The position numbers and the translations under genes are program-made. From a virus: a stretch of 64,000 nt of DNA. The first letter of the stretch is position 1; each line of letters opens with the position of its first letter. Below are positions 31,338-56,379 of the stretch, piece by piece. The stretch spans positions 1 through 64,000 of IMG/VR virus record IMGVR_UViG_3300020411_003736. One strand, 5' to 3'. Below the pieces are notes generated by a model. That model had not been told where the DNA came from. It was given only the letters and a program-made list of their open reading frames with translations, and did not search any database.

Positions 31338-31380
31338 CCTAAAGCTAATAATAAAATGCAATACAAGTCAAGACTTTTTT
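31338..31380 (-). promoter_or_regulatory. Early-type promoter (A-tract, TTGACT-N18-TAGCTTTAG)
   Basis: Member of a family of at least 7 near-identical intergenic elements. Confidence 0.7.
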
Positions 31381-32162
31381 TAAATAAATTTATCCACTTC
31401 TCTTTGTTCTTCGACTTCGACTTTCTGGATTTCTGCGGTGTTTATAGTGTCGGCGGGATAAGGATATAGTTTATGTTTTAGTTTTGATTTGTATAGTCTG
31501 TTTTCTTTTTTGTTTCCGATGAAATAGAGATATCTATGTTTCTCTGCTTCCTTCTTCAACCAAAATGTTTTACCTATTTTCTTAATTAAATTTTTGGGTG
31601 CGGCTGAACCATATAAAGAATAAACGGTTCTGCTATGTATCCACTCTCCATCTTCTGTGAGTCTTAAACTGAATGTTGGCGCCATCTGTATTTCGCCGCA
31701 CCCTTGATATAACCAATTAGTTGCTTGATAAATTTTACCTGAATGATTTTGTTCAGGATCTGCATATGATATTAATACTTTAATGTTTGGTGCGTTCTGT
31801 TTCAACCAAGCAAACATAGCACCTAATACAAGTGATTCTATATTCTTACCATAACCATCATCAATATAAAGTCTTGTAAGTTCTAAAAGATTTGTTGTTT
31901 CCAATCCTATATCTTCACTAAAGATAGAACCCAACACTCTTCTTCCTACGGGAAAACCAAGGGTCATACAACCTATGAGAGTTTCTTTGGATTCGTTTTC
32001 GAAGAATGGATGTGGGGAATCATCTTTATAAAAGATTCCTAAAGCATATCTACAAGAAGAAGATTTATGAGTATAATGTTTTTCAACAATTATATTCTTT
32101 GCTTGTTTCTTAGGTATTTGTTGTAGATATACTTTTGATTTATCTACATATTTTTCTTCCAT
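31380..32162 (-). CDS. Mom-like (GNAT-fold) DNA adenine modification protein
   Basis: HY..; LELTRL; VLISYADPEQNHSGKIYQATNWLYQG is characteristic of Mom-family proteins. Confidence 0.7.
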   Translation of the reverse strand: MEEKYVDKSKVYLQQIPKKQAKNIIVEKHYTHKSSSCRYALGIFYKDDSPHPFFENESKETLIGCMTLGFPVGRRVLGSIFSEDIGLETTNLLELTRLYIDDGYGKNIESLVLGAMFAWLKQNAPNIKVLISYADPEQNHSGKIYQATNWLYQGCGEIQMAPTFSLRLTEDGEWIHSRTVYSLYGSAAPKNLIKKIGKTFWLKKEAEKHRYLYFIGNKKENRLYKSKLKHKLYPYPADTINTAEIQKVEVEEQREVDKFI

Positions 32163-32197
32163 ACCATATAACTCGGTTATCGTTCACTTAAAATTTG

Positions 32198-32269
32198 AGC
32201 GGTGTTAGAGAATCGAACTCCACCTTCTTCGTTGGAAACGAAGTGTATCGCCTTTGATACTTCCACCGC
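32198..32269 (-). tRNA. tRNA-Gly (UCC)
   Basis: GCGGTGG AA GTAT CAAAGGCG ATAC A CTTCG TTTCCAA CGAAG AAGG TGGAG TTCGATT CTCTA ACACCGC T. Cloverleaf with U73 discriminator; CCA not encoded. Confidence 0.88.
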
Positions 32270-32351: not shown

Positions 32352-32771
32352 TTGGAATTTAGGTGGGATGTGAGATTAACGATTACTCACAACTTTCAGC
32401 TCAGATTTTTTATACCTTGTACCTAACACCTATCAGCTACTATAGTTCTTTGTAATGAATGGTTAGTTCACGTAACAAAGTGAGTACAACCTCTGTGTTA
32501 TTACCTTATCTCTCTGAGTTTAGATTATTCAGTCATAAAGTGGGATTAGGTTTTATCCGACCCACAACAAGGTCAAAGAATCGTGTTCTTTATTTTTCTG
32601 AAAGTACATTAGATGGTAGATGTCTCTACAGGACAGTTAAACCTCTACAACATTTAGCAGAGTTCCAAGCACCATACTTCATCTTAGATTCCCTTATGAG
32701 CTTCAAAGTATACTCATTATTCAGGCAATCCCATACAGAGTTAATTACTCTCTGTACTTTCCTATTCCAAA
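32352..32771 (-). ncRNA. Large (~420 nt) structured ncRNA, ROOL/GOLLD-class candidate
   Basis: No ORF on the transcribed strand; ends pair (UUGGAAU/AUUCCAA, AGG/CCU, UGGGAU/AUCCCA); many internal and long-range helices; adjacent to a tRNA. Confidence 0.7.
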
Positions 32772-37533: not shown

Positions 37534-37797
37534 ATGGAAGAGTATTCTCAGTTTATACCAAAGGGTTCTGGCTCTAATATTAAGTTTGTGGTAAACATAG
37601 TAGGATTATTAGGTGCTATGGCTGGTGGATGGTATAAGTTAGAGAGTAGAGTATCTGATTTGGAAAGACAATTAGAGCAACAAGAAAAAGTTAAATCCAT
37701 ACAGCGTGAAATAGAATTGATGGAGAGAGACCAACAGTTAGAAGAATTAAAGTGGCAGTTTAAATTAGATTCATTAAAAATGGCTAACAATGATTAA
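37534..37797 (+). CDS. TM plus coiled-coil protein
   Basis: One TM helix then coiled coil; late motif upstream. Confidence 0.6.
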   Translation: MEEYSQFIPKGSGSNIKFVVNIVGLLGAMAGGWYKLESRVSDLERQLEQQEKVKSIQREIELMERDQQLEELKWQFKLDSLKMANND

Positions 37798-38026
37798 GTT
37801 AAAAGATTTACTTAACGAGAGATATGTATCAAAAAGGTCTGATACGATTGAAGATGTATATCAATCTGCAGTAGACTCATTAGAAGACTTATCTGATTTA
37901 TTCAAAAAACATGCACCAGAAGAAAGATTATTATCCCGTACTTTAGAAAAACAATCTATGATGGTAAGAAGAATGATAACTAAAAGTAAATCTTATCAAG
38001 ATATTAAGGATATGACAAATGATTAA
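37790..38026 (+). CDS. MIKLKDLLNE-leader protein
   Basis: Shared 5' cassette. Confidence 0.6.
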   Translation: MIKLKDLLNERYVSKRSDTIEDVYQSAVDSLEDLSDLFKKHAPEERLLSRTLEKQSMMVRRMITKSKSYQDIKDMTND

Positions 38027-38204
38027 ATTAAAATGGATTCTTGCAATAATTCTTTTATGTGGCGCCTTAGAACCTATTGAAGCTAATGTTAAAGAAGGTA
38101 AGGAACAAATAAAAGAAAAGAAACCAAAGAAACATACGCCAGGATGCAATTGTGGTGAACCACCAAAACCACCAAAGTTTTGGTTTTGGTTCAATTGGAA
38201 ATAA
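38019..38204 (+). CDS. MIKLK-leader small secreted-type protein
   Basis: Shared start, hydrophobic signal, HTPGCNC. Confidence 0.5.
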   Translation: MIKLKWILAIILLCGALEPIEANVKEGKEQIKEKKPKKHTPGCNCGEPPKPPKFWFWFNWK

Positions 38205-38205
38205 A

Positions 38206-38472
38206 ATGATTAAGTTAAAAGATTTACTAATAACATTCTTTCTGTTATCAACATTGAATGGGCAAGAGATACTAAAGGATGGTGTTAAACCAACATCATT
38301 TACTTATGAAGAAGCGGTAGAGATGTTAAAGGCTCGTGACGCTGAGTGGGAAGCTAAAGTTAAGAAGTTGGAAGAGAGAGTATATGTAGATTCTCTTATC
38401 ATAGTTGCAAAGAACGCTCACATTGAATCCCAAAAGAAACAGATAAAGGTATTGGAGTTACTTACAAAATGA
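38206..38472 (+). CDS. MIKLKDLL-leader protein with signal-like segment
   Basis: True start likely 38206 (22-nt cassette), not 38152. Confidence 0.55.
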   Translation: MIKLKDLLITFFLLSTLNGQEILKDGVKPTSFTYEEAVEMLKARDAEWEAKVKKLEERVYVDSLIIVAKNAHIESQKKQIKVLELLTK

Positions 38473-39158
38473 TTAAGTTAAAAGATTTATTAAACGAAGG
38501 AAAGTACACAGTTTATTTTGATGTTGGTTCACCTGGCTTAATGTCTAAAACTGTTAGTGCAAGAAATGAAAAGGAAGCTGCTAAACAAGTTGCTAGTGGA
38601 TTAAAGGGTGGCGCAAAACTTATTAAAAAAGTGGTAAAGGAAGGAACTGGTCTTACATATAAAAAAGGTAAGACAGTAAAGGTTAAACATAAAACATCTG
38701 GAAAAAGTATTGTTATTATAGATAAACCAAATGTAAGAAGAGAATATGAAAAAATAGGATTTTTTGCTGAAGGAAGTTGTGGGTATGGAATAGATGGAAA
38801 GGTTGGTAAAAAGCCAGCAGGTCCTCATTTGTTAAAAAAGAAGAAAAAAATATTAAAATCAAGAGTACATGAAGCACCAGGTAAATCTGGCAAAGATGAA
38901 TATGTTGGTACTGCTAGAGTTAAAGTAGAGCCTGGTACATATAAAGGTCAAAGAGTTAATTTTCACGATGTATCAATGTATCGTGACCATAAAAAACCAT
39001 ATCATTATTATTTGACAATTAGACTTGCTCACTCTGATGGTAAGAAAGTTGATATGGTGATAAGTACAGGCACACATATTCTAAAAAAAGCTGGTAAGTG
39101 GGCACAAGGATTTATTAAGAGAAGAGTTGGTGGGACTGGTAAAGAGAGATTTCAATAA
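38469..39158 (+). CDS. MIKLKDLLNE-leader basic protein (possible internal head protein)
   Basis: Lys-rich, modular segments separated by xxE|G/A sites (LLNE|G, VVKE|G, FFAE|G, RVHE|A). Confidence 0.55.
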   Translation: MIKLKDLLNEGKYTVYFDVGSPGLMSKTVSARNEKEAAKQVASGLKGGAKLIKKVVKEGTGLTYKKGKTVKVKHKTSGKSIVIIDKPNVRREYEKIGFFAEGSCGYGIDGKVGKKPAGPHLLKKKKKILKSRVHEAPGKSGKDEYVGTARVKVEPGTYKGQRVNFHDVSMYRDHKKPYHYYLTIRLAHSDGKKVDMVISTGTHILKKAGKWAQGFIKRRVGGTGKERFQ

Positions 39159-39298
39159 TGACTAAACATTTAAAAGAAACAAACATGGGTTATTTTAAAC
39201 ATTGGTGGAGAGCTATGAAGTTAAGTGGTGCACTATTTATTCATGCATTCTTACCTGATGTTTTAAGTGATTACGCAAGTAAGGAGTTACAGAAATGA
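39158..39298 (+). CDS. Small protein (46 aa)
   Basis: MTKHLKETNMGYFKHWWRAM..FIHAFLP; overlaps both neighbours' stop/start codons. Confidence 0.6.
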   Translation: MTKHLKETNMGYFKHWWRAMKLSGALFIHAFLPDVLSDYASKELQK

Positions 39299-39570
39299 GT
39301 AATGTATTAACATTAACACTAAAGAAGAAATACTTTGACGCAATATTAAGTGGTGAGAAAACAATAGAGTATAGGGATATAACTGATTATTGGAGACCAC
39401 GATTGGAGAATAAAGATTATGATACTATTCTATTTAGGAATGGATATAGTCCTGATTCACCTACAATGACTGTAGAGTATAAAGAATTAACAATAGATAG
39501 ACAATCTAATCCAAACCGATACGCATTAGTGTTGGGAGAAGTATTAGATTCTGCAAATTTGAAGAACTGA
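39295..39570 (+). CDS. ASCH/PUA-domain protein
   Basis: LKKKYFDAILSGEKTIEYR..FRNGY. Confidence 0.8.
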   Translation: MSNVLTLTLKKKYFDAILSGEKTIEYRDITDYWRPRLENKDYDTILFRNGYSPDSPTMTVEYKELTIDRQSNPNRYALVLGEVLDSANLKN

Positions 39571-39599
39571 TAACCTTAAACAAAAGGAGTGAGAAGTAA

Positions 39600-39887
39600 A
39601 TGGGACTATTTGGTAATGACGCTGAGTTAGAAGCTAAGATAACTCAAATTGAACAGAATATATCTGTAATAGAAGAACGGATTACACAACTTAATGTTGA
39701 TGTAGAGAGTTCTTATTCAGATATAAAGAACGATATCCAAAGGTTAAAAACAAATACATTGGAGAGTCTTGAGATACCAGAGCCTGTAGTTACATCCACA
39801 ATAGATGAATCCAAACTAAGTGATTTGGAACAAAGGTTAGAAACAATAGAGAAGAGATTAATGATTGGTGGATGGGCACCTAAGTAG
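39600..39887 (+). CDS. Coiled-coil hypothetical protein
   Basis: AAGGAG RBS. Confidence 0.55.
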   Translation: MGLFGNDAELEAKITQIEQNISVIEERITQLNVDVESSYSDIKNDIQRLKTNTLESLEIPEPVVTSTIDESKLSDLEQRLETIEKRLMIGGWAPK

Positions 39888-40056
39888 AAATATCTTTTAT
39901 CTTTTTACCACTATCTATATAATCCATAATATAACGCTCTATATCTTTAGGTCTAATATATAACCCAAACATCTTTATTGAACCCTTCTTATTGCTGAGT
40001 AGTTCTTGTTCTAAACACATTCGTTTAAATAGGTACTTAGCTAAATCATCTAACAT
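39880..40056 (-). CDS. Hypothetical protein (58 aa)
   Basis: MLDDLAKYLFKRMC...; below the ORF-track cutoff. Confidence 0.4.
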   Translation of the reverse strand: MLDDLAKYLFKRMCLEQELLSNKKGSIKMFGLYIRPKDIERYIMDYIDSGKKIKDIST

Positions 40057-40070
40057 TCTGCTAATATAAT

Positions 40071-40118
40071 CTATTTACAATCACATCCACAATCGCAACA
40101 TTCACAACACTTACACAT
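40071..40118 (-). CDS. 15-aa Cys-rich micropeptide MCKCCECCDCGCDCK (metallothionein-like)
   Basis: GGAG RBS 6 nt upstream of ATG; ATATTTAT late motif at 40148-40155. Confidence 0.55.
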   Translation of the reverse strand: MCKCCECCDCGCDCK

Positions 40119-40254
40119 AATTTTCTCCAGTTTTATTATACACATAGATAAATATAAAAAAGCTATACTGAAAAAAACCTGGCTCGGTATTCGTGTCGAT
40201 TTAGCGTGGGCCTCACACCTCTTCGATCGGTGGACAACCAAATGAAGATGTCGG

Positions 40255-40450
40255 TGTGGGGGTCGGGTGGTGTTTAGGTGTGGGGTAGTTGGTGGGTGGT
40301 AAAATCGAAACAAAATCGACAACATCGGAAATCGATTTGTAGGTCGGGTGGTGTGTTGTGTAAATGGTTGGTGGGTAGTAAAATCCCCTAAATCGGATTT
40401 GTCGGAAATAGGGCGGGTGGTGTGTTGTGTAAGTGGTTGGTGGATAGGGT
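40255..40450. repeat. Three imperfect G/T-rich direct repeats (CGGGTGGTGT...GTTGGTGG)
   Basis: Units start at about 40262, 40343 and 40413; extreme G skew; non-coding. Confidence 0.75.
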
Positions 40451-40616
40451 GATAGGTGTGATTGGGTTAACCATCACTTTACCATTCTTCACGCCTTCCA
40501 AAATTATTTTTGTTTATTCTTTTTTTAAGGTGTCGTTTATACCACCAAAAAAAATATATCTTTTGTATCCTATCTATTATGTAATGTATAAAATTAACCA
40601 TAGTAACTCCCACGCC

Positions 40617-40817
40617 TTATTGAGACTCAATCTCAATAAATAATTCTAATTGGTTTGGGTTGGGTTTCATAGGTCGAAACCAATTACCATATTCATCAAT
40701 CCAATTTTCCCAACCATAAGAAGTCATTTGTATTTCTATACATTCCAACATATATGGTGTTAGATTGTCGTGTGATTCTAATGTGATTGGTAATTTACTA
40801 TGTCTTATTTTCTTCAT
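40617..40817 (-). CDS. Hypothetical protein
   Basis: ORF track; ends NQLELF-like motif. Confidence 0.45.
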   Translation of the reverse strand: MKKIRHSKLPITLESHDNLTPYMLECIEIQMTSYGWENWIDEYGNWFRPMKPNPNQLELFIEIESQ

Positions 40818-40955
40818 TCATTTTTCTTTACATATTAGTAATATCAGATATATCTTATATTACTCATTCGTAAAATGGAAGTGCCTCTTTTTAATAGAAT
40901 AGGTGGGGTAAGAAAAAGGAGGAAACTCACCCCACCACACGATGGGTAAATGAAC

Positions 40956-42104
40956 TTAGTCACTCACCTCATCAAATAATTCTTCATCACTTCCATCACT
41001 CACAAACTTTTGAACGATTTGTTTGACAAAGGTTCTTTCGGAATCAACACCACCACTACTATCGTATTGTGGGTAGATTGTGATATCCGCGGATTCTTCC
41101 AAAGTGAATCCATCAAATAATAGTGATACTATTTCAACAGAAGTTCGAGTTGAGATACCACTACTAATTCGTGGATTATCATTTAGTGATTCCATTCGTG
41201 TCATATGAGATATTTTACTTACATTAGAAACTAATGTCTCATCTACAGATGGAAACATATATCTGAGTAATCCGAACTCTTCTTCTTCATTTAGTAAATC
41301 CATTTCAATAGTAGTGAACCTATCCATAAGTGCCTTATCTAATTGTCGGGTCGCGGTATACTCATTACCTATGTTCGCCGTGGCGACAAATGTAACTCCA
41401 TCAGATACCTTTATTGTATCCGAACCATCTTTTTCATCCAACCTTAAATATCTTTGTCCATAATCCAAAACAGACATTAGGATATTCCACGCATCGGGAT
41501 GTGCCCGCGTCAACTCATCCAATAGTATGATTGAGTTTGGAGTTTGTATCGCCTTTACAAAAAGTGATTCCGAAAAGTAAGTTCCTTTTTTGGAATCGAA
41601 ATGTGTATTTCCAATTAGGGTACTTCGTGGATCTTGTGTACTTCCCAAATTGAAGTAGAAAGATTCCCTATCCAAAGAATTGATTAAGGATTTCGCCGCG
41701 AGTGTCTTACCACACCCCGCTTGCCCTGTCATCATAATATTCTTACCTCTAATCGCAGACCTTATGAGATATTTCCACTTCAACTCTTTCATCACCAAAT
41801 CTTTTGGTTTGAGTTTATATGAAGTTGAAATGAAGTTCATCACTTCTTCGTGTTCAGATGGTATTTCGACATCCGAAGATGGTGGTGTAGTATATGTACT
41901 TCCCATACTATCGAATTGTGACATTGGGACTTTCCACCAATATATCCTTCCACCCTTCCCAACTCTTTGTTCTAAGGCCATACCCGCGTTAAAGGCGGAT
42001 TTTCGTGTGGATGTGAGAATCTCTGAAGTCCTTTTGACTCCATTCTGATCCCACGCATTGAATCTGTTCCCACTTTTTTCAATTTTAACGATTGTTGAAT
42101 TCAT
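40956..42104 (-). CDS. MoxR/CbbQ/NirQ-type AAA+ ATPase
   Basis: Walker A GQAGCGKT, Walker B ILLDELTR, ATAN, LDKALMDRF. Confidence 0.88.
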   Translation of the reverse strand: MNSTIVKIEKSGNRFNAWDQNGVKRTSEILTSTRKSAFNAGMALEQRVGKGGRIYWWKVPMSQFDSMGSTYTTPPSSDVEIPSEHEEVMNFISTSYKLKPKDLVMKELKWKYLIRSAIRGKNIMMTGQAGCGKTLAAKSLINSLDRESFYFNLGSTQDPRSTLIGNTHFDSKKGTYFSESLFVKAIQTPNSIILLDELTRAHPDAWNILMSVLDYGQRYLRLDEKDGSDTIKVSDGVTFVATANIGNEYTATRQLDKALMDRFTTIEMDLLNEEEEFGLLRYMFPSVDETLVSNVSKISHMTRMESLNDNPRISSGISTRTSVEIVSLLFDGFTLEESADITIYPQYDSSGGVDSERTFVKQIVQKFVSDGSDEELFDEVSD

Positions 42105-42124
42105 CGTTTTTTCTCCTTTTTCTG

Positions 42125-42175
42125 ATACCTAAATTTACTCACTAAATACTATATGAGTCAAGCTTTTTTTTCACT
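42125..42175 (-). promoter_or_regulatory. Early-type promoter TTGACT-N18-TAAATTTAG
   Basis: Promoter family motif upstream of the AAA gene. Confidence 0.7.
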
Positions 42176-42194
42176 TTTTTTCAATAAATCGCGA

Positions 42195-42520
42195 GGTGGG
42201 GAAGAGGTCTTATTGACATCGCCTTCCTCACCCACCGAAATTTTCAGAGGGAATTAGTCGTCACCATTCCCTCTATATCTTAACTCACCGAATGACTATT
42301 CCCGTCGGAATTCATTACAAAGTGTTTAAGAAGTCTTTAAAAAATCTTTGGGAGTCTTTGTCAATGAGTTCTCCCTTTTCTCATCACCTCTGAAAATTTT
42401 ATCATCACCACGAGGATTTTTATGATGATGGTTGGTACATTCTACTCCTTAGTTCGTATTTACCGGCCCAACTCGGTGAACTTCAAATAGGGTATCATTT
42501 AAGTCATCTAAGTCTCAATT
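42195..42520 (-). ncRNA. Candidate structured ncRNA
   Basis: Own promoter (42546-42590); 13-bp long-range helix, pseudoknot, several hairpins; no long ORF. Confidence 0.5.
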
Positions 42521-42545
42521 CCTTTTTTTTATCTCTCTCATTACA

Positions 42546-42590
42546 CCCAAATGTACCCATAAAATGCAATATGAGTCAAGGTTTTTTTTC
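42546..42590 (-). promoter_or_regulatory. Early-type promoter TTGACT-N18-TACATTTGG
   Basis: Promoter family motif with no protein gene directly downstream. Confidence 0.65.
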
Positions 42591-42975
42591 ACTTTTTTTC
42601 ACTTTTTTTTACCATAAGTTATCCCCCCCACGCCTTATTGAGACTCATTATCAATAAGTGTAACTATAGTAATATTAAGACTTACGACACGCATTTTGTT
42701 GAGTCTCAATAACATTTGAGTAATTAATCCAAAACTCTAAGTTATGGTAAAGTGTGGAATATACATAAAGTTATCCTTAAAGTCAAGCTTTTTATATCGA
42801 TATATTGTTTTATATACCAAAAATTTTAAAGTGGCGTGCGTGTGTCCATAGTATTTTGGATTCTATAGTATATTATATTAACCCTAATTAAAATATATAT
42901 TAGGGTTTTATGAAGTGGGTAATTGTGGTTTAAAGTGGTAACTTATGGTTAAGTACCACTATTATAAGGTATATC

Positions 42976-43191
42976 TTAATCTTCTATAAAATATTTGACT
43001 AAAACGGCGAGTTTATCCTCATATTCTGCCATTTTCTCTAATTCTTTTTCGATTGTCTCCATAGTATCTGGATGTTCCGCCACACCCACACCATTTTCAA
43101 TCATTATATTGATATTAACTTTATGTTTATTAATTTGGGATTCAAAGTAATCTTTCAATCCTTCCATTATATCATCTCTAAAGTTATTCAT
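42976..43191 (-). CDS. Conserved small phage protein
   Basis: GVGVAEHPDTMETIEKEL motif common in marine myoviruses. Confidence 0.65.
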   Translation of the reverse strand: MNNFRDDIMEGLKDYFESQINKHKVNINIMIENGVGVAEHPDTMETIEKELEKMAEYEDKLAVLVKYFIED

Positions 43192-43387
43192 ATCCTCACC
43201 TCTCTCAATGTCTTAACATATTTCCACGCATCACCCATTGTTTTGGAAATGTACTCTTTCGCATCTTCTTCATTTAGTGCGAGAAATGTGTACCCTTCAT
43301 CGGTTCTCCACCTCTTATAGTGTGAGAATTGTTTTGATTTTTTATCTTTCTTTTGTCTCTTCATATTATGTGTCTAACTTCCTTATT

Positions 43388-43600
43388 TTATTTGTTTTTA
43401 TTTGTGAGTGAAATTTGGGTTCGAATCCATTCATCATATATCTTATCTATCTGTTCATCATCATATCCTCTCTTCTGGAATGCATCTTCTCTACTCATAT
43501 ATGTCATAGGTACATCGGATAGATTATACTCCCTACCATATGTATCTACAAATATTCTTTCCTTTAACCATTTAGGTTTATACTCTCTGTATGTTATCAT
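43388..43600 (-). CDS. Hypothetical protein
   Basis: Packed ORF. Confidence 0.5.
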   Translation of the reverse strand: MITYREYKPKWLKERIFVDTYGREYNLSDVPMTYMSREDAFQKRGYDDEQIDKIYDEWIRTQISLTNKNK

Positions 43601-43601
43601 C

Positions 43602-43805
43602 TTAATTCATGTCCTTTTTAACTTTAGGTTCATAGTATACTTTATCATAACAATTTAAACATAATTGTCCACACCCTTCTATATATCCCAATCTGAAATC
43701 CAAATGTTCATCTATGTCAAATTGAGTTTCACAATCACATATCACGCATTTATCTTTAGGTTTTATCTCTTCTTCTATTCCAATTGTCATTAATGGTTTT
43801 CTCAT
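43602..43805 (-). CDS. Small Zn-finger-like protein
   Basis: CVIC...YIEGCGQLCLNC. Confidence 0.55.
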   Translation of the reverse strand: MRKPLMTIGIEEEIKPKDKCVICDCETQFDIDEHLDFRLGYIEGCGQLCLNCYDKVYYEPKVKKDMN

Positions 43806-44050
43806 TTTACTAAATTATATCCTTCTATTAAATCCTCTACTTCATCTGTATTAGGAAATCTCCCAACCTCTTCCTTACTAAACAACATAGATGTCGCGTT
43901 ATTTGTGTGTAGAAACTTTACATTAAATATTCCATCCGAACCTTGTATTAAATCTACTTCTACTCCGAATCTATTTACTAAACTTTCCCTTAAACTAAGG
44001 GCTTGAAATTCATACCCTCATTGAGTACAATACTCTATAGTGATTTTCAT
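43802..44050 (-). CDS. Rdx/SelW-family selenoprotein (82 aa, UGA = Sec at codon 11)
   Basis: MKITIEYCTQU*GYEFQALSLRESL...GSDGIFNV...LFSKEEVGRFP: the Rdx family signature with CxxU. In-frame TGA at 44018-44020; hairpin CCCUUA-GUU-UAAGGG 17-31 nt downstream. Confidence 0.85.
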
Positions 44051-44148
44051 CTATTTATCCATTTATACATTCTAAGAATCTTTTTAATATTCTTTTTATC
44101 TTATTCCTTTCACCTCTATTTCTTTCCCATAATAGAAATAACTCTTCT

Positions 44149-44334
44149 CTAAGTTTTGCCTCCGCTGACTCGCTCATTACTCTCTAATTCCTTTAACTCT
44201 TTTTCCAAACCTTCAATCATCCAACCATCCAAATGTCCTTTGGCTGTCAATTGTTGTTTGATGTGTTCTATTCTTTCCTTTCTCTTTAACTCTAAGGACA
44301 TCCCCTCTATCCAATTAGAAACTTGCTTCATCAA
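44149..44334 (-). CDS. Hypothetical protein
   Basis: Packed ORF. Confidence 0.45.
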   Translation of the reverse strand: MMKQVSNWIEGMSLELKRKERIEHIKQQLTAKGHLDGWMIEGLEKELKELESNERVSGGKT

Positions 44335-45830: not shown

Positions 45831-47798
45831 TTATTTCTCCAAAAACATATTGTTCATTGTTTTAGCCACTTCCATCATATTTGTGGGATTGATAAAAGTC
45901 GCATCCCTACCATACATTCTACTAAAAGTAGTTTTTTCATTCTCATAGGAATAATCACTACTGATAAAGTAACTCAATATTTTGATTCCATTATTTCGAA
46001 GTTGCTTCACCATTTTTTGAGTATGTTTCACAGCTTCTGTGCCTGAATAATGAATATCATTATTACCAAACCAAGGAGCCCCATCTGAATAATTGATGAA
46101 GTAATTATCATCACTATTTGACAAACCTAAAAAGTGATTCATCATAGCTTCGTAACATAGTGACTCTGGAGTAGTTCCACTAGTTCTAAGTGATGGCCAT
46201 AGATTCTTAACTTTACTTATCTTATCTTTTTGTGAATCATACGCAATCAACAGAACAGGATTATTTTCATTAGTATATCTCATACTCACAACAACTCTAA
46301 TGTTTCCAGCCATCTCAGCCGCTTTAATGATTGCCACAGTAGAGGTAATTGCATTTTCCCACTTCTTACCATTCATAGAACCTGAACCATCAATAGAAAT
46401 ATGAAGATTAGCTTTATTATATCTTTCTGTAAAGGTTTGTGAAAAAACTCTCTCATTACCAAATCCCAACTCAGAAATTAATCTTTTGTCTATTTTACCA
46501 GTATCTTGACGAGTGAAAATTAAATCTCTCTCTTCCCCACGAACCTTTAATTTCTTACCTAACATAGTTCCCAAACGAAGACCCTCAAGAATTGGTTTCC
46601 CATAATGTGAATCCCATACATCATCACCACCATACAACCAAGGTTTTTGAGCAAAATGAAAAGCATTACTATCTATTAAATCTTGAGTAAGATTAGGAAT
46701 AACAACACATTTTGTTTTTCCCATATATCCACCATCACCAACCTCAACCATCTCAGCACCACTTTTTGCAACAGAATTAACAATCTGAGCATCTCTTTTG
46801 GTTAGTTTGGATTTTGGTGTTTTTCCATCCATAAAATCTTTAGCTTTTTGAACAGCATTGATGAGTGATTTCTTTTGTCTATCTGATAACTCTTCAAAAT
46901 CTACAGAATCACCTTTTTCACCATCTTCAGCATCACCCGACTCAGCATCATCTCCTGGAGTCATTTCAGCATCACCAATATCAATAGTAGTTCCACCACC
47001 CATTTGAGAATCACTTTCTTCATTCTCTCCATCACCATTTTGTGACTCCGGCTGACCATTACCATTTTCATCATTGGTAGATTTAACAGAACCAACTATT
47101 GAAAATACCATATTTGAAACTTCTCTAGCCAAATCAATCACACCTTCAGGACTCAATCTCAATACATTTTTCAAATCCATCAAATTGTATATCTCACGAA
47201 GTTTTGGAAGTGCGTCTAAATCTGATTCCTTTGGAGCCATAAAACCTAAGATACGAAACTCATAACTTTCGATATCATACTCACGATACATACCTGATTT
47301 CAAACCCTTCCTAATGGCGTTATTTCTGAAATACTTCTTATAAAGACTGTGGTAGTAACCTTTGTAGCCAGGTGAAGATTTGAAAACCTTAGTATCGATT
47401 CTCCTATCCTCAATAAAGTTAATCATATTTTTGAAAAAAGCCCTTTGTTCATAAGTCCAATCCTCAGGAGTTTCTCTAATAGCGTCAGCCAAAAGTTCAA
47501 AATCACTAAAGGCAATGTGACTACCTTCGTGAAGAGCCAAACCAACTACATGGTCAAAATTCTTATCATTAATATTAGCAGAAATAGTAACATTCTTACC
47601 ATCTGTGTAACTATCTCCTCTTTGTGTATATTTAACAGGAATATTTTGTCCACTTACAATACGAACAAAATTTGCGATAGCTCTCTGATTAGAAGCCATC
47701 TGAATGTAATCTTTCTTTGGTTTTTCCTTTTCGATACCCAACAACTCATCAATGTCAGTATCATATTTATCAAACCAAAAATCCGAATAATTTTTCAT
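45831..47798 (-). CDS. vWA-domain protein with N-terminal HExxH domain (MoxR partner, CobT-like)
   Basis: LHEGSH..EDRRID; acidic linker; MIDAS DGSGS..T..SDG. Confidence 0.8.
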   Translation of the reverse strand: MKNYSDFWFDKYDTDIDELLGIEKEKPKKDYIQMASNQRAIANFVRIVSGQNIPVKYTQRGDSYTDGKNVTISANINDKNFDHVVGLALHEGSHIAFSDFELLADAIRETPEDWTYEQRAFFKNMINFIEDRRIDTKVFKSSPGYKGYYHSLYKKYFRNNAIRKGLKSGMYREYDIESYEFRILGFMAPKESDLDALPKLREIYNLMDLKNVLRLSPEGVIDLAREVSNMVFSIVGSVKSTNDENGNGQPESQNGDGENEESDSQMGGGTTIDIGDAEMTPGDDAESGDAEDGEKGDSVDFEELSDRQKKSLINAVQKAKDFMDGKTPKSKLTKRDAQIVNSVAKSGAEMVEVGDGGYMGKTKCVVIPNLTQDLIDSNAFHFAQKPWLYGGDDVWDSHYGKPILEGLRLGTMLGKKLKVRGEERDLIFTRQDTGKIDKRLISELGFGNERVFSQTFTERYNKANLHISIDGSGSMNGKKWENAITSTVAIIKAAEMAGNIRVVVSMRYTNENNPVLLIAYDSQKDKISKVKNLWPSLRTSGTTPESLCYEAMMNHFLGLSNSDDNYFINYSDGAPWFGNNDIHYSGTEAVKHTQKMVKQLRNNGIKILSYFISSDYSYENEKTTFSRMYGRDATFINPTNMMEVAKTMNNMFLEK

Positions 47799-53498: not shown

Positions 53499-54854
53499 CT
53501 ACTTTACTTCTGGCACATTACAATCACGACAGATAACTTTGGTGTTCTCTACAGTGGTAGCACCACCAGCAGAATGTGCATCTATATGTCCTTTCACTGC
53601 GTCACCGAAACGAAGTGTACATCCACAATCCTCACAAACCTTATTACCTTTACCATCATCATTTTGTAACCATAAATTAAATAAATCTCTATCCGAAATA
53701 ACTCTCAATGGATCAACACCAATCACACCATCGCAACTATCTAACTCATTAAGTAAAAATTGCAATCTAATCTCTAATCCCCTTGAATCAGAACCTAATC
53801 GTGTCTTTTGGTGATAAGCTGTCTCCTCAATACCCATCTTCTTCTGCTCATCACTAACCATTGATAATCTATTGTGTGTAACAAAAAACCAATCAACAAA
53901 CTTATTCCAATGTTTGACTCTCAATGACTTATCATTTAATATATGATTTGTTATGAGAGTTAAATTTAAAATAACACCTAAGTTTATACTCTTCTTATAC
54001 TTCTTGTTTTCCAACATGGTGTATAACTTATCTAAAACTTTATCAACTTTTGTGCTGATAAAGTGATTTCTATATTCAGGTTTCAAATACATATCTTTCA
54101 AAGTTTTTGCTGAAAGACCAGATTCTTTACCTATACCCAAAACAATAGCAGTAATCTTAGCTAACAACTCATCTTGTGCCATCTTCTTAAATGTCAATGA
54201 AGTATACAATGATTTAAGAGATTTACTATCCCTCTTAAATAAATTATGTAATTCAAACTTCGTACCCTTCCACTCATTATCTAATCTAGCAGTTCCACGA
54301 ACATAAGCAGCAGGTGCGGTATTTATCGCATTTCTCTTTTCAGCTTCTGTCATAGCATTAAGGTCATTTAAATCACAAAACATCTGCATTATCTCAGCTT
54401 CATTTGAAGAATGAGTCAACACCAATCTTAATTCGGATGAGAGAAACTTCTCTGCTAAGTGTGGGTGATTATTCTTCACATCAGACCAATTCATACCACT
54501 AAGATCATAATTATCTCTTAACTCATAATCTACCACAACACATGTACCCAATTTAAATTTGTCATTAAGAAAATCCGTAATGGTTCTAAATCTCTGTTGT
54601 CCATCTATCATTTCTGTTATGGAATGTAAAGCGCTTATTCTATTTCCACCATCCATAACCATATACTGATCATCAACTCTAGCGTATAAATTAGGGATGA
54701 CACGATTACCCTCAAAAATACTACCAATGAGTTTTTGTTGCCAACCCTTCCTTTCATGTGCGATGTAATCTCGCTGATAGGCTGGGTTTAAATTTATTGT
54801 TTTTGATATCGTTTCGATATCCTTTATGTTTATCACTTTAAGTGAACTCTTCAT
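53499..54854 (-). CDS. DUF262 (ParB-like/GmrS) plus C-terminal HNH nuclease
   Basis: PAYQR..W, IDGQQR, F..LN; C-terminal CEDC..GHIDAH..GG.T..N..VICRDCN. Confidence 0.8.
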   Translation of the reverse strand: MKSSLKVINIKDIETISKTINLNPAYQRDYIAHERKGWQQKLIGSIFEGNRVIPNLYARVDDQYMVMDGGNRISALHSITEMIDGQQRFRTITDFLNDKFKLGTCVVVDYELRDNYDLSGMNWSDVKNNHPHLAEKFLSSELRLVLTHSSNEAEIMQMFCDLNDLNAMTEAEKRNAINTAPAAYVRGTARLDNEWKGTKFELHNLFKRDSKSLKSLYTSLTFKKMAQDELLAKITAIVLGIGKESGLSAKTLKDMYLKPEYRNHFISTKVDKVLDKLYTMLENKKYKKSINLGVILNLTLITNHILNDKSLRVKHWNKFVDWFFVTHNRLSMVSDEQKKMGIEETAYHQKTRLGSDSRGLEIRLQFLLNELDSCDGVIGVDPLRVISDRDLFNLWLQNDDGKGNKVCEDCGCTLRFGDAVKGHIDAHSAGGATTVENTKVICRDCNVPEVK

Positions 54855-54973: not shown

Positions 54974-55186
54974 TTAATCTAAAATCTTATCATCAATGTT
55001 TCTAAGCAAAATCCTAACCTTATTATTGTCAACATCCTCATTTTCTTGCTTAGTGATATCCCATTCAACCAATGTACCCTCTTCCCAATCCAACTCATCA
55101 TATATCGCTTTTGGTATGGTGAAAATCAATTCCTCTGTTTTGAAGATTTCATCATTTACTAATTTCTTTTCTACTTTTATTTTCAT
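54974..55186 (-). CDS. AbrB/MazE-like DNA-binding protein
   Basis: FTIPKAIYDELDWEEGTLVEW. Confidence 0.6.
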   Translation of the reverse strand: MKIKVEKKLVNDEIFKTEELIFTIPKAIYDELDWEEGTLVEWDITKQENEDVDNNKVRILLRNIDDKILD

Positions 55187-56379
55187 CTACCTACCTCATT
55201 TAAATACTTTGCCTTTGTTTGATTCCAACTCTTACCAACAACATCAGCATAAAATAACTTCTCAGGTTTCAATCTACCCTCATCAAATAACTTACTATAT
55301 CTTCTGATAGCTTTTGGTTTCCACCAATTGTTTATATAATCCACATCATCAACATACTTCTTCTTCATAATAAGTTCATCCTCATAGATGTTACCCTTTA
55401 GAAACTCTCTACCATTCTCATATATATCTGAATAGTAAACACCTCTTTTGAAACCATGATCATAATTTGAAGCTCTTAAACCCAACTCTTTAAATATCAT
55501 ATTAATGATAATACTCTTCACTCCAGTCTTTGGACCAGCAACTCCCTCTTTTTGTGTGGTTCTTTCTAAATACTCTTCTCTCTTATTCTCTTTAATCCAA
55601 TCATGCCAAACCTCATAAAATGAATCATCTGGCTTCAATGCAATCCTACCAGCAGATTCCCCAAGAGTTTTCCAATGTGGAATTCCATTATACATTGAAT
55701 GTACACCATAAAGAGCAGTAGTGGTAATACCAACTAAAGTTTCATTATAAAGTTCTTCCCATTTATTTCTTATAACAGAACTTGTAGTCATAGCTGCAAC
55801 CAACTTACCACCTAAGAAATTAAATCCCAAAGGTTGTGTACAACATATAGTAGTAGCAATAGAAGTATGTCTCAATTTACCATCAGTTAATTTATCTTCT
55901 TTTGTCCAACCAATATGTTTATCTCTGACACCTATTGCAACTACATCAGACCCCAAACATACCACACCTAATACTTTCTCTGTGTTTCTATCTTTGATAA
56001 AGAACTTTAGATTTCTACCAGGATTAGCAGTAAACTCCATACTATGAATCAACTTCCTTACTGAAACCCAAGTATCTGTAGCTTTGGCATCCCCTTGCTC
56101 AATATATTCCACATAAGGGTTTAACTCTTCTATCTCTTTTATAGTTTGTTGTTTGTTGTTTATGTCAGTGGGTGTCCACAACATATAACCGACATTGAAA
56201 AACTTATTTGCCTTCTTTACCATTTTGTAGGCATCTTTGTTCAGTTCCTGCCACTTTTTATATAAAGTAATCTCTTCAACTGACATAGCCTTCAACATAT
56301 TCATATTATCGATAAACTTATCCCGCTCCCGATCGTAATTAAACTCATCCGGATCGTCAAAAAAATCATTGAACGCCAC
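55183..56379 (-). CDS. DUF4338 / DruA-like protein
   Basis: PGRNLKF..LGVVCLGS..RDKHIGW..QPLGFNFLGGKLVA..TTTALYG..SMYNG. Confidence 0.65.
   Translation of the reverse strand: MAFNDFFDDPDEFNYDRERDKFIDNMNMLKAMSVEEITLYKKWQELNKDAYKMVKKANKFFNVGYMLWTPTDINNKQQTIKEIEELNPYVEYIEQGDAKATDTWVSVRKLIHSMEFTANPGRNLKFFIKDRNTEKVLGVVCLGSDVVAIGVRDKHIGWTKEDKLTDGKLRHTSIATTICCTQPLGFNFLGGKLVAAMTTSSVIRNKWEELYNETLVGITTTALYGVHSMYNGIPHWKTLGESAGRIALKPDDSFYEVWHDWIKENKREEYLERTTQKEGVAGPKTGVKSIIINMIFKELGLRASNYDHGFKRGVYYSDIYENGREFLKGNIYEDELIMKKKYVDDVDYINNWWKPKAIRRYSKLFDEGRLKPEKLFYADVVGKSWNQTKAKYLNEVGR

Follow-up and report, generated by a model that had tools for sequence, protein, structure and literature searches.

A sharply bounded 4-kb block of a phage genome kept nearly free of AGC/GCT and CAGB words by selection on the DNA itself

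Why should some 4 kb in the interior of a phage genome be almost devoid of words only three or four letters long, when the DNA on either side of it uses them freely? The question is raised by IMG/VR record IMGVR_UViG_3300020411_003736, a linear viral record of 130,380 bp rated 71% complete; "the window" here means its first 64 kb (positions 1 to 64,000), the stretch in which the word-poor zone lies. The zone occupies 40204..44163 on both strands, 3,960 bp, and includes an AAA+ ATPase gene and three predicted early promoters. As set out below, its composition is the outcome of selection on the DNA itself, rather than of codon usage or chance, and the agents that could lie behind that selection are weighed in turn.

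The zone holds six AGC/GCT triplets against 66.5 expected, and a single CAGB (CAG followed by C, G, or T) or VCTG, its complement, against 51.3. CAGA/TCTG occurs 21 times against 30.4 expected, which we regard as normal, and TGCA twice against 9.2. Along the coding strand both orientations are depleted (observed/expected: AGC 4/27.3, GCT 2/39.2, CAGB 1/19.2, and VCTG 0/32.1), which disfavors a cause at the level of the messenger RNA (mRNA) and favors one at the level of the DNA. The initial annotation, made from the sequence alone, had called 40206-44000 nearly devoid of AGC/GCT, and the depletion is stronger than it claimed: the interval contains five triplets at three places (41719, and AAGCTT at 42161/42162 and at 42786/42787), whereas 56.8 are expected from the rest of the window. 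Its count of three residual sites was right, and only the position of the first, given as 41709, has to be corrected. What it overlooked was the CAGB/VCTG purge and the purge of the zone's 1,422 non-coding bp, which carry 4 AGC/GCT and no CAGB, compared with approximately 19 and 10, respectively, predicted from intergenic DNA elsewhere in the record.

No equally depleted window exists elsewhere in the record, so that the sliding-window k-mer check proposed with the initial annotation came out in its favor. The three longest AGC/GCT-free gaps of the window (1516, 1214, and 624 bp) all lie in the zone, the next longest being 516 bp in the window and 625 bp across the 130,380-bp record. Among the 34 non-overlapping 3,795-bp windows of the record, the number of AGC/GCT triplets ranges from 23 to 129, and the sliding-window minimum is 6, at 40201. 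When all 3-mers and 4-mers were scanned, 135 windows of the record fell below a log10 p of -6, and 113 of these overlap the zone; the best value is -22.7 in the zone and -8.6 elsewhere.

Both edges are sharp. On the left, the last AGC/GCT outside the zone is at 40203, the switch points of the two word classes are 40178/40203, and G-rich repeats start near 40250; on the right, AGC/GCT and CAGB resume at the very same base, 44164. Between 40178 and 44164 the CAGB class has a single site. The sharp left edge had been recognized correctly; the right edge, described as fading gradually, does not fade, the AGC at 44001 being an unavoidable Gln-Ala junction inside the zone. Near-identical DNA is present in marine metagenome runs of 13 studies, and the zone itself is carried, with few differences, by assembled contigs of four runs from four separate studies; it is therefore not an assembly artefact.

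Read on the minus strand from 44163 to 40204, the zone comprises a SelW-like gene, four small open reading frames (ORFs), 870 bp without ORFs, the ATPase gene, a 66-amino-acid (aa) ORF, and the G-rich repeats. The features are listed below from right to left, with one partner gene outside the zone. Its three promoters (TTGACT/TAnnnT with A-tracts) were called by consensus only, and L005 is a sister contig that is compared further on.

45831..47798, minus strand: vWA (CobT-like) partner gene, outside the zone; Pfam VWA 5.2e-4, which is below the curated cut-off, and PHROG 5298 3.6e-4
40204..44163, both strands: the word-poor zone
43809..44050, minus strand: SelW-like (Rdx) gene with an in-frame TGA at CxxU; Pfam Rdx 4.4e-16 with TGA read as U
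42976..43805, minus strand: four tightly packed small ORFs of 71, 58, 70, and 67 aa, the first belonging to PHROG 1811 and the last Cys-rich
42185-42975, minus strand: 870-bp ORF-free stretch with three tandem predicted early promoters, 72-81% conserved in L005
42758..42786, minus strand: predicted early promoter P3 (TTGACT, 17 nucleotides (nt), TATATT), with AAGCTT
42550..42579, minus strand: predicted early promoter P2, in a 77-nt repeat common to P1 (D1)
42185..42549, minus strand: predicted transcribed stretch downstream of P2 with no minus-strand ORF of at least 30 aa; 77-81% with L005
42132..42161, minus strand: predicted early promoter P1 (TTGACT, 18 nt, TAAATT), with an upstream A-tract and AAGCTT
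40956..42104, minus strand: AAA+ ATPase of the MoxR/CobS type, 382 aa; Pfam AAA_5 3.3e-17 and PHROG 249 1.7e-26
41719..41727, minus strand: the sole AGC/GCT and sole CAGB of the ATPase gene, in Walker A codons (GQAGCGKT), Gln-Ala being CAA GCG
40911..40925, minus strand: stretch after the ATPase stop codon, 15 nt, 93% complementary to the ribosome-site region 42109-42123 (I8)
40617..40817, minus strand: 66-aa ORF of no known family by ORF call and profile searches
40609..40639, no strand assigned: 31-nt element with a short palindrome, its second copy at 42627-42657, 2,018 nt away (D4, 94% identity; I2, I7)
40251..40447, plus strand: G-rich direct repeats (C-rich on the transcribed minus strand), about three units with a spacing of 69-81 nt (D2, D3, D10)

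If words are being removed, one should be able to say why a few have stayed, and here this is possible, since each of the four residual AGC/GCT sites is under constraint, two as Gln-Ala junctions and two as AAGC-TTGACT promoter elements. A Gln-Ala site is not removable silently because CAR GCN always yields AGC or CAGG. One of these junctions is in the Walker A motif of the ATPase, at a column where AGC is kept in 10 of 10 close relatives; the other (CAA GCC) is the site at 44001 in the SelW-like gene. The two AAGCTT sites, already assigned to promoters in the initial annotation, do sit at P1 and P3, and the GC-TTGAC junction is present in five of the 12 A-tract sigma-70-type promoters of the record. 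All 12 lie between 31 and 73 kb, with three of them in the zone.

The shift in Ala codons noted initially is real: GCT, 58% of Ala codons genome-wide, is used for none of the 23 in the zone genes, and GCG rises from 6% genome-wide to 14 of the 23. When the ATPase gene was resampled with the codon usage of the genome (2000 runs), it contained 19.4 +/- 3.3 AGC/GCT with a minimum of 9, and when its own skewed set of synonymous codons was permuted (1000 runs), 9.5 with a minimum of 3; the observed number is 1. The same permutation gives 8.4 CAGB with a minimum of 3. The four small ORFs have no AGC/GCT, where codon resampling predicts 3.6, 2.9, 1.7, and 1.6. The depletion is thus significant under both nulls, one of them the kind of codon-shuffled control that the initial annotation had asked for.

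The comparison with orthologues indicates how the words were lost. There are 39 columns in the ATPase alignment with AGC/GCT in at least three of 10 close relatives; 24 are altered silently here, and at the remaining 15 the residue is replaced (mostly Ala to Ser) or there is a gap. The silent routes include GCT to GCG, GCC, or GCA, as well as paired changes such as AAA GCT to AAG GCG and TCA GCA to TCC GCC. With 16 Ala and 43 Ser residues, the protein has the lowest Ala count and the highest Ser count of the 81 orthologues (18-36 and 20-42, respectively, in the other 80). The substitution routes are many, including paired changes and residue replacements, and a simple mutational bias is therefore ruled out; the products of deamination (AGT, TAG, and GTT) are not enriched in the zone, nor is its G+C content lowered. 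Chance, codon usage, and mutational bias (context-specific deamination, for instance) thus have a negligible claim as explanations: the shifted codon usage itself is all that speaks for them, while both codon nulls are rejected and the non-coding DNA is purged as well.

Two further features of composition should be kept apart from this signature. The anomaly of GCA/TGC and CG in the zone relative to the rest of the genome was set aside, as it falls inside the range of the relatives' ATPase genes, and the CG excess is largely a by-product because GCT is changed to GCG. Across the whole record, GATC, CATG, CTAG, ACGT, GGTACC, and CTTAAG fall far short of a Markov expectation; this is palindrome avoidance of the ordinary kind and is separate from the zone signature.

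Is the purge a family trait? The relatives examined were the best 80 of 211 matches among viral contigs and the best 80 of 581 matches in metagenomes, and none of these 160 shares the AGC/GCT and CAGB purge. The ATPase gene has one AGC/GCT and one CAGB here, compared with 12-42 and 11-34 in the 80 viral-contig orthologues; the 80 metagenome loci have 5.3-40.3 AGC/GCT and 12.4-35.7 CAGB per kb, compared with 0.9 per kb of each here. When joint sites are counted per 2.5-kb window over approximately 2.1 Mb of DNA from related phages, the minimum is 5 in this phage and 13 in the next locus. A search of metagenome contigs for closer relatives gave none above 79% identity among the matches listed, and an exact 27-nt word of the zone has no match in any other viral contig, which says little, as near-identical records may be missing from the search. 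The sister contig L005 groups with this phage in the tree, its ATPase being 82% identical in protein and 76.5% in DNA; it is collinear, and the other aligned segments are 67-89% identical. Since L005 has the same gene order and is not purged, position alone does not force the purge. AGC/GCT-poor patches were seen elsewhere, in L022 (1-4500, observed/expected 0.08) and L017 (10500-14000, 0.10); one patch covers unknown ORFs, the other an island of sugar genes, their CAGB is unpurged, and the rest of each contig is half-depleted in AGC/GCT. The conservation of the zone above its flanks among populations was also considered; the pieces are few and other flanking pieces are equally conserved, so it is not relied on.

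Although the relatives keep AGC/GCT, many of them are short of another word at the same place. For 26 non-redundant loci with long flanks, we took a block that starts 3 kb upstream of the ATPase gene and ends 0.5 kb past it. Pooled over these loci, TGCA occurs 116 times against 283.3 expected, and it is below half of expectation in 15 of the 26. No other 4-base palindrome with large counts is clearly depleted, the rest ranging from 0.68 to 1.61 except for the rare GCGC (6 vs. 21.3). When profiles are pooled, the number of TGCA sites per 500-bp bin drops from about 30 to 5-9 between -2 and +1 kb. The vWA and ATPase genes of 11 lineages have three TGCA in total, compared with 52.8 under within-gene codon permutation; these TGCA-poor lineages fall in two clades, with exceptions within them. 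In paired Wilcoxon tests, whichever G+C-containing word is most depleted in the block gives a stronger signal than an equal control window upstream in 20 of the 26 loci (p = 0.001) and than one downstream in 22 (p = 0.0001). A single-gap test in the relatives missed the trough, which windowed and pooled tests revealed.

In most relatives the vWA gene abuts the ATPase gene and is TGCA-free, whereas in L005 and this phage it lies approximately 4 kb away and has an ordinary TGCA density; here its word content is normal altogether. The small ORFs that replace it beside the ATPase gene in these two phages are TGCA-poor. The TGCA content of the vWA gene thus tracks its distance from the ATPase gene, which favors a positional over a gene-specific cause, the cases being few.

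As to what kind of phage this is, its predicted genes are those of a distant T4-like myovirus. Among them are a family-B polymerase, clamp loader, UvsX-like recombinase, gp32-like protein, and DnaB-like helicase, and, on the structural side, sheath, tube, baseplate wedge, and major head protein. The minus strand carries 161 of 178 ORFs by a crude ORF call. Marine auxiliary genes are present (PhoH, peptide deformylase, Hsp20, and a NeuB-type sugar cluster), as is a manA RNA. A DNA search against cultured phages found no close relative; the closest cultured polymerase is that of Microcystis phage Mel-JY01, at 44.6% identity. The early region also encodes a GmrSD_N + HNH protein (53499-54854, minus strand) and a DruA-family protein (55183-56379, minus strand), and both families are known in bacterial anti-phage systems. 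A 910-aa protein with CarboxypepD_reg and TonB-dependent receptor Plug domains, that is, a SusC-like N-terminus, is encoded at G000 92770-95502 (L002 12770-15502, minus strand); the early promoters of the phage are of the sigma-70 type and not of the Bacteroidota type.

Within the zone, the SelW-like gene looks like a conserved phage selenoprotein candidate with a bacterial-type selenocysteine insertion sequence (SECIS). TGA is found at the same CxxU position in 12 of 12 Rdx/SelW homologues from related phage loci. A short hairpin approximately 17-20 nt past the TGA comes in three stem versions, all with the same GTT loop, and its stem differs among loci by matched changes on both sides. In the minimum-free-energy fold of the RNA after the TGA of this copy, a competing hairpin is chosen, and the fold is not better than shuffles (z = -0.5). 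Profile searches gave no informative family for the zone's small ORFs, and a protein atlas look-up of the 71-aa ORF gave unnamed viral clusters only.

The ORF-free stretch 42185-42975 probably gives rise to one or two non-coding RNAs, and 42185..42549 in particular is likely to be one, judging from the predicted promoters and the lack of ORFs; a search of Rfam at gathering thresholds and a tRNA scan found nothing within the zone. Its population variants include a 52-nt deletion (42186-42237) and a 104-nt tandem duplication (42238-42341), and indel or duplication variants of 42185..42549 occur in three runs. Repeats D1 (promoter) and D4 (31-nt palindrome) lie inside the zone and not at its edges.

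The left edge adjoins rearranged DNA. A plus-strand gene block at 37534-39887, the only one in this part of the record, is inverted relative to L005, and its right end is approximately 300 bp from the edge; 39.9-40.85 kb has no aligned counterpart in L005, and the same is true of the G-rich repeats. Their copy number differs among populations, with joints that skip 74 and 90 nt, and in one contig of run X6, 40248-40889 is replaced by 40 other letters. A scan of the zone for intrinsic terminators found none. The repeats, C-rich on the transcribed strand, may be a Rho-type termination region where transcription meets the plus-strand block of 37.5-39.9 kb.

What, then, keeps the block in this state? 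The explanation we prefer, tentatively and as something short of probable, is that the agent is a sequence-specific DNA-cutting or DNA-sensing activity and that the selection is confined to one early promoter-rich block. Purifying selection on double-stranded DNA would keep the 3,960 bp free of AGC/GCT and CAGB/VCTG, and largely of TGCA; the driving activity would have very short recognition words, and it would reach the early, host-promoter-driven block when, or in a state where, the rest of the genome is protected. The logic would be that of the restriction-site-free early regions known as T5 first-step-transfer DNA and the T7-like leading region. We infer both the nuclease or sensor and the exposure of the block alone. 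As an interpretation, then, the initial annotation is partly supported: selection on the DNA itself is upheld, and the two settings it offered for that selection, a first-injected genome end and a zone kept free of the phage's own modification, fare poorly below.

Several observations weigh against a cutting or sensing activity. No nuclease, sensor, or restriction system has been matched to the purged words; to our knowledge, no bacterial restriction system recognizes a 3-letter word. The removal of every AGC far exceeds what is needed to avoid AGCT or GCWGC. Type II-style under-representation of short palindromes as a class is absent from the zone: those of 4 bases number 206 against a median of 215, and those of 6 bases 54 against 54. 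Of these palindromes, AGCT and TGCA alone are low, and CGCG and TCGA are high. The other early promoters and early genes of the record are unpurged, as is the sister L005 with its identical gene order. As for TGCA, some words are depleted in the relatives' control windows too, the 26 loci are related to one another, and one gene of the block is unusually conserved and richer in G+C. Ordinary Type II restriction in particular is disfavored because palindromes are not avoided, the words have three letters, and the sister is unpurged.

A broader version of the preferred explanation, which we consider unlikely but worth stating, is that a marine-bacterial or phage agent (nuclease, sensor, or marking enzyme) reads 3-4-letter words on one class of early phage DNA only and that each lineage rewrites the block in its own dialect. 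The block would be TGCA-free in many lineages and AGC/GCT- and CAGB-free in this one, exposed perhaps because it travels or acts separately from the genome under protection, as an early cassette that has been excised might do. If true, this would be a general, undescribed layer of phage-host conflict.

One alternative, already proposed in the initial annotation, is that this DNA enters the cell ahead of the rest, as a fixed genome end like that of T5, and has lost a motif that the host restricts or senses. Local motif loss, strong host-type promoters, small early ORFs, repeats at one zone edge, and the TGCA-poor block in relatives would all suit it, and there is published precedent (PMC10644984 and PMC12455610). 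No support for such an end was found, however, and we rate it as quite unlikely. The zone lies well within a contig of 130 kb, and its left edge is spanned by a contig assembled from an independent run (39198-42610); contig breaks just upstream of the ATPase gene sit at the repeated promoter and are taken as assembly breaks. An end repeat was looked for in the record and none found, and the record, 71% complete, contains no terminase gene from which the type of packaging could be read; the gene set is T4-like, and headful packaging, with no fixed end, is usual in such phages. Nor does the zone avoid palindromes as a class, and the sister L005 keeps its AGC/GCT and CAGB. Recombination is an alternative with an equally low claim: the block would have been imported from an unseen donor lineage broadly poor in these words, the dialect being donor history. 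Such an import would account for both word classes switching at the same places (40178/40203 and 44164), and it would sit well with the DNA left of the zone, rearranged with respect to L005 by the inverted block and the stretch lacking a counterpart, where contigs of three runs end at 40056-40057 and restart at 40172 or 40381. Promoter and stem-loop repeats occur within the zone, L017 and L022 show that patches poor in AGC/GCT (0.10 and 0.08) exist in half-depleted contigs, and cassette shuffling and mini-circles are described for T4-type phages (PMC2839356). Yet divergence from L005 is similar inside the zone (71-81%) and outside (67-89%), no donor appears in the matches examined (the best 80 of 211 from viruses and the best 80 of 581 from metagenomes) or at 30 loci found through a small ORF, near-identical records possibly being absent from these searches, the zone edges do not coincide with promoter/stem-loop elements, and the relatives' TGCA trough is positional.

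The initial annotation had offered a second idea, namely that the words are contexts of the phage's own DNA modification, from which the block must stay free, and it was correct that Mom-like and glycosyltransferase genes are present. There are three Mom-family paralogues (31380-32162 of the window, minus strand; G000 85706-86302; and G000 97731-98396), along with sugar genes, and one Mom gene lies 35 nt from the record's only tRNA gene, tRNA-Gly(TCC) (32197-32269, minus strand), which is upstream of it and just downstream of the manA RNA (32365-32558). The Mom enzyme of Mu uses Gly-tRNA-Gly as glycyl donor and modifies A in SAS contexts, CAG included (PMC13219725), and this phage may therefore itself provide the co-substrate with which its adenines are hypermodified. 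Every depleted word has A/T flanked by G/C, and the sister record, with two Mom genes, lacks the AGC purge. Still, of the SAS contexts only CAG is depleted in the zone (0.30 of expectation), whereas CAC (1.75), GAC (1.63), and GAG/CTC (1.35) are enriched, and there is no known reason for 4 kb of mostly coding DNA to stay unmodified; the idea is thus very doubtful. That Mom gene number tracks the purge (0-3 in other relatives) was tried and failed, two other three-Mom records (those of L071 and L078) having lost neither AGC nor CAGB; most relatives' records are fragments, in which a missing Mom gene is uninformative. Two further readings lack support. One, highly improbable, is that a host CRISPR system uses the words as protospacer-adjacent motifs (PAMs) and that they have been lost from a conserved early block in which escape by changing the protein is costly. 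PAM depletion has reportedly been proposed for phages, and 2-4-letter motifs acting on either strand would fit a loss of short words that is symmetric between the strands; we know of no PAM set made up of such words, other conserved genes (polymerase and capsid) are unpurged, and TGCA in the relatives is more like a restriction site. The other, more improbable still, is that the block serves as a replication origin and that both its strands are kept clear of the triplets at which primase begins, which are GCT/GTT for the T4 enzyme and CTG for E. coli DnaG. The depletion of triplets with one-sided flank rules, the three predicted promoters driving ORF-less transcripts, the adjacent G-rich repeats, and GTT/AAC, mildly low in the zone at 0.79 of expectation, would be in keeping with it. 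There is no sign of an origin here, a primer-free zone has no known benefit, and TGCA in the relatives does not fit.

If a cutting or sensing activity is responsible, the zone is a sharply bounded and testable target, since a reader of AGC/GCT and CAGB must act on the block and not on its neighbors, and the TGCA-poor block of the relatives provides a comparative handle on the agent. The purge has been strong enough for Ala to be replaced in a conserved ATPase. More generally, composition dialects can mark functional or historical units in phage genomes at single-base resolution. Local loss of restriction sites in first-entering DNA is already known in T5-like and T7-like phages; near-complete, strand-symmetric loss of 3-4-letter words over 4 kb of a T4-like phage was not found in full-text searches of the literature, which brought up only genome-wide avoidance and the T5/T7-type cases.

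How does the zone compare with these systems? Genome-wide avoidance of restriction sites or PAMs resembles it in the strand-symmetric loss of short words through silent changes; it is usually mild, whereas the loss here is confined to 4 kb, near-total, and residue-changing. The early cassettes of T4-type phages are shuffled between promoter/stem-loop (PeSL) elements and give rise to mini-circles, and they share with the zone sigma-70-type early promoters and stem-loops repeated among small non-essential genes, with rearranged DNA nearby; the abstract of that report describes shuffling and mini-circles, not word avoidance (PMC2839356), and the zone has edges away from such elements and contains a conserved ATPase gene. 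Marinomonas podophages, which are T7-like, escape a Type I system when its motif is absent from the leading region (PMC12455610). There, too, in murciaviruses and Autographiviridae, one early region decides and the motif persists elsewhere; unlike here, where two or three very short words are involved, it is a single bipartite Type I motif, and the order of entry is known. The closest likeness may be drawn with T5-like phages, which are restricted only via sites in the first-step-transfer region (PMC10644984). Both regions span a few kb with strong host-type promoters, small early genes, and repeats at the inner edge, and in both the words are absent locally and kept in the rest of the genome, those of the zone being known from sequence alone and not as recognition sites. 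The T5 region, on the other hand, lies in a terminal repeat at a fixed end, enters first, and avoids ordinary sites of 4-8 bases, whereas the zone belongs to a T4-like phage, avoids words of 3-4 letters, and keeps its palindromes.

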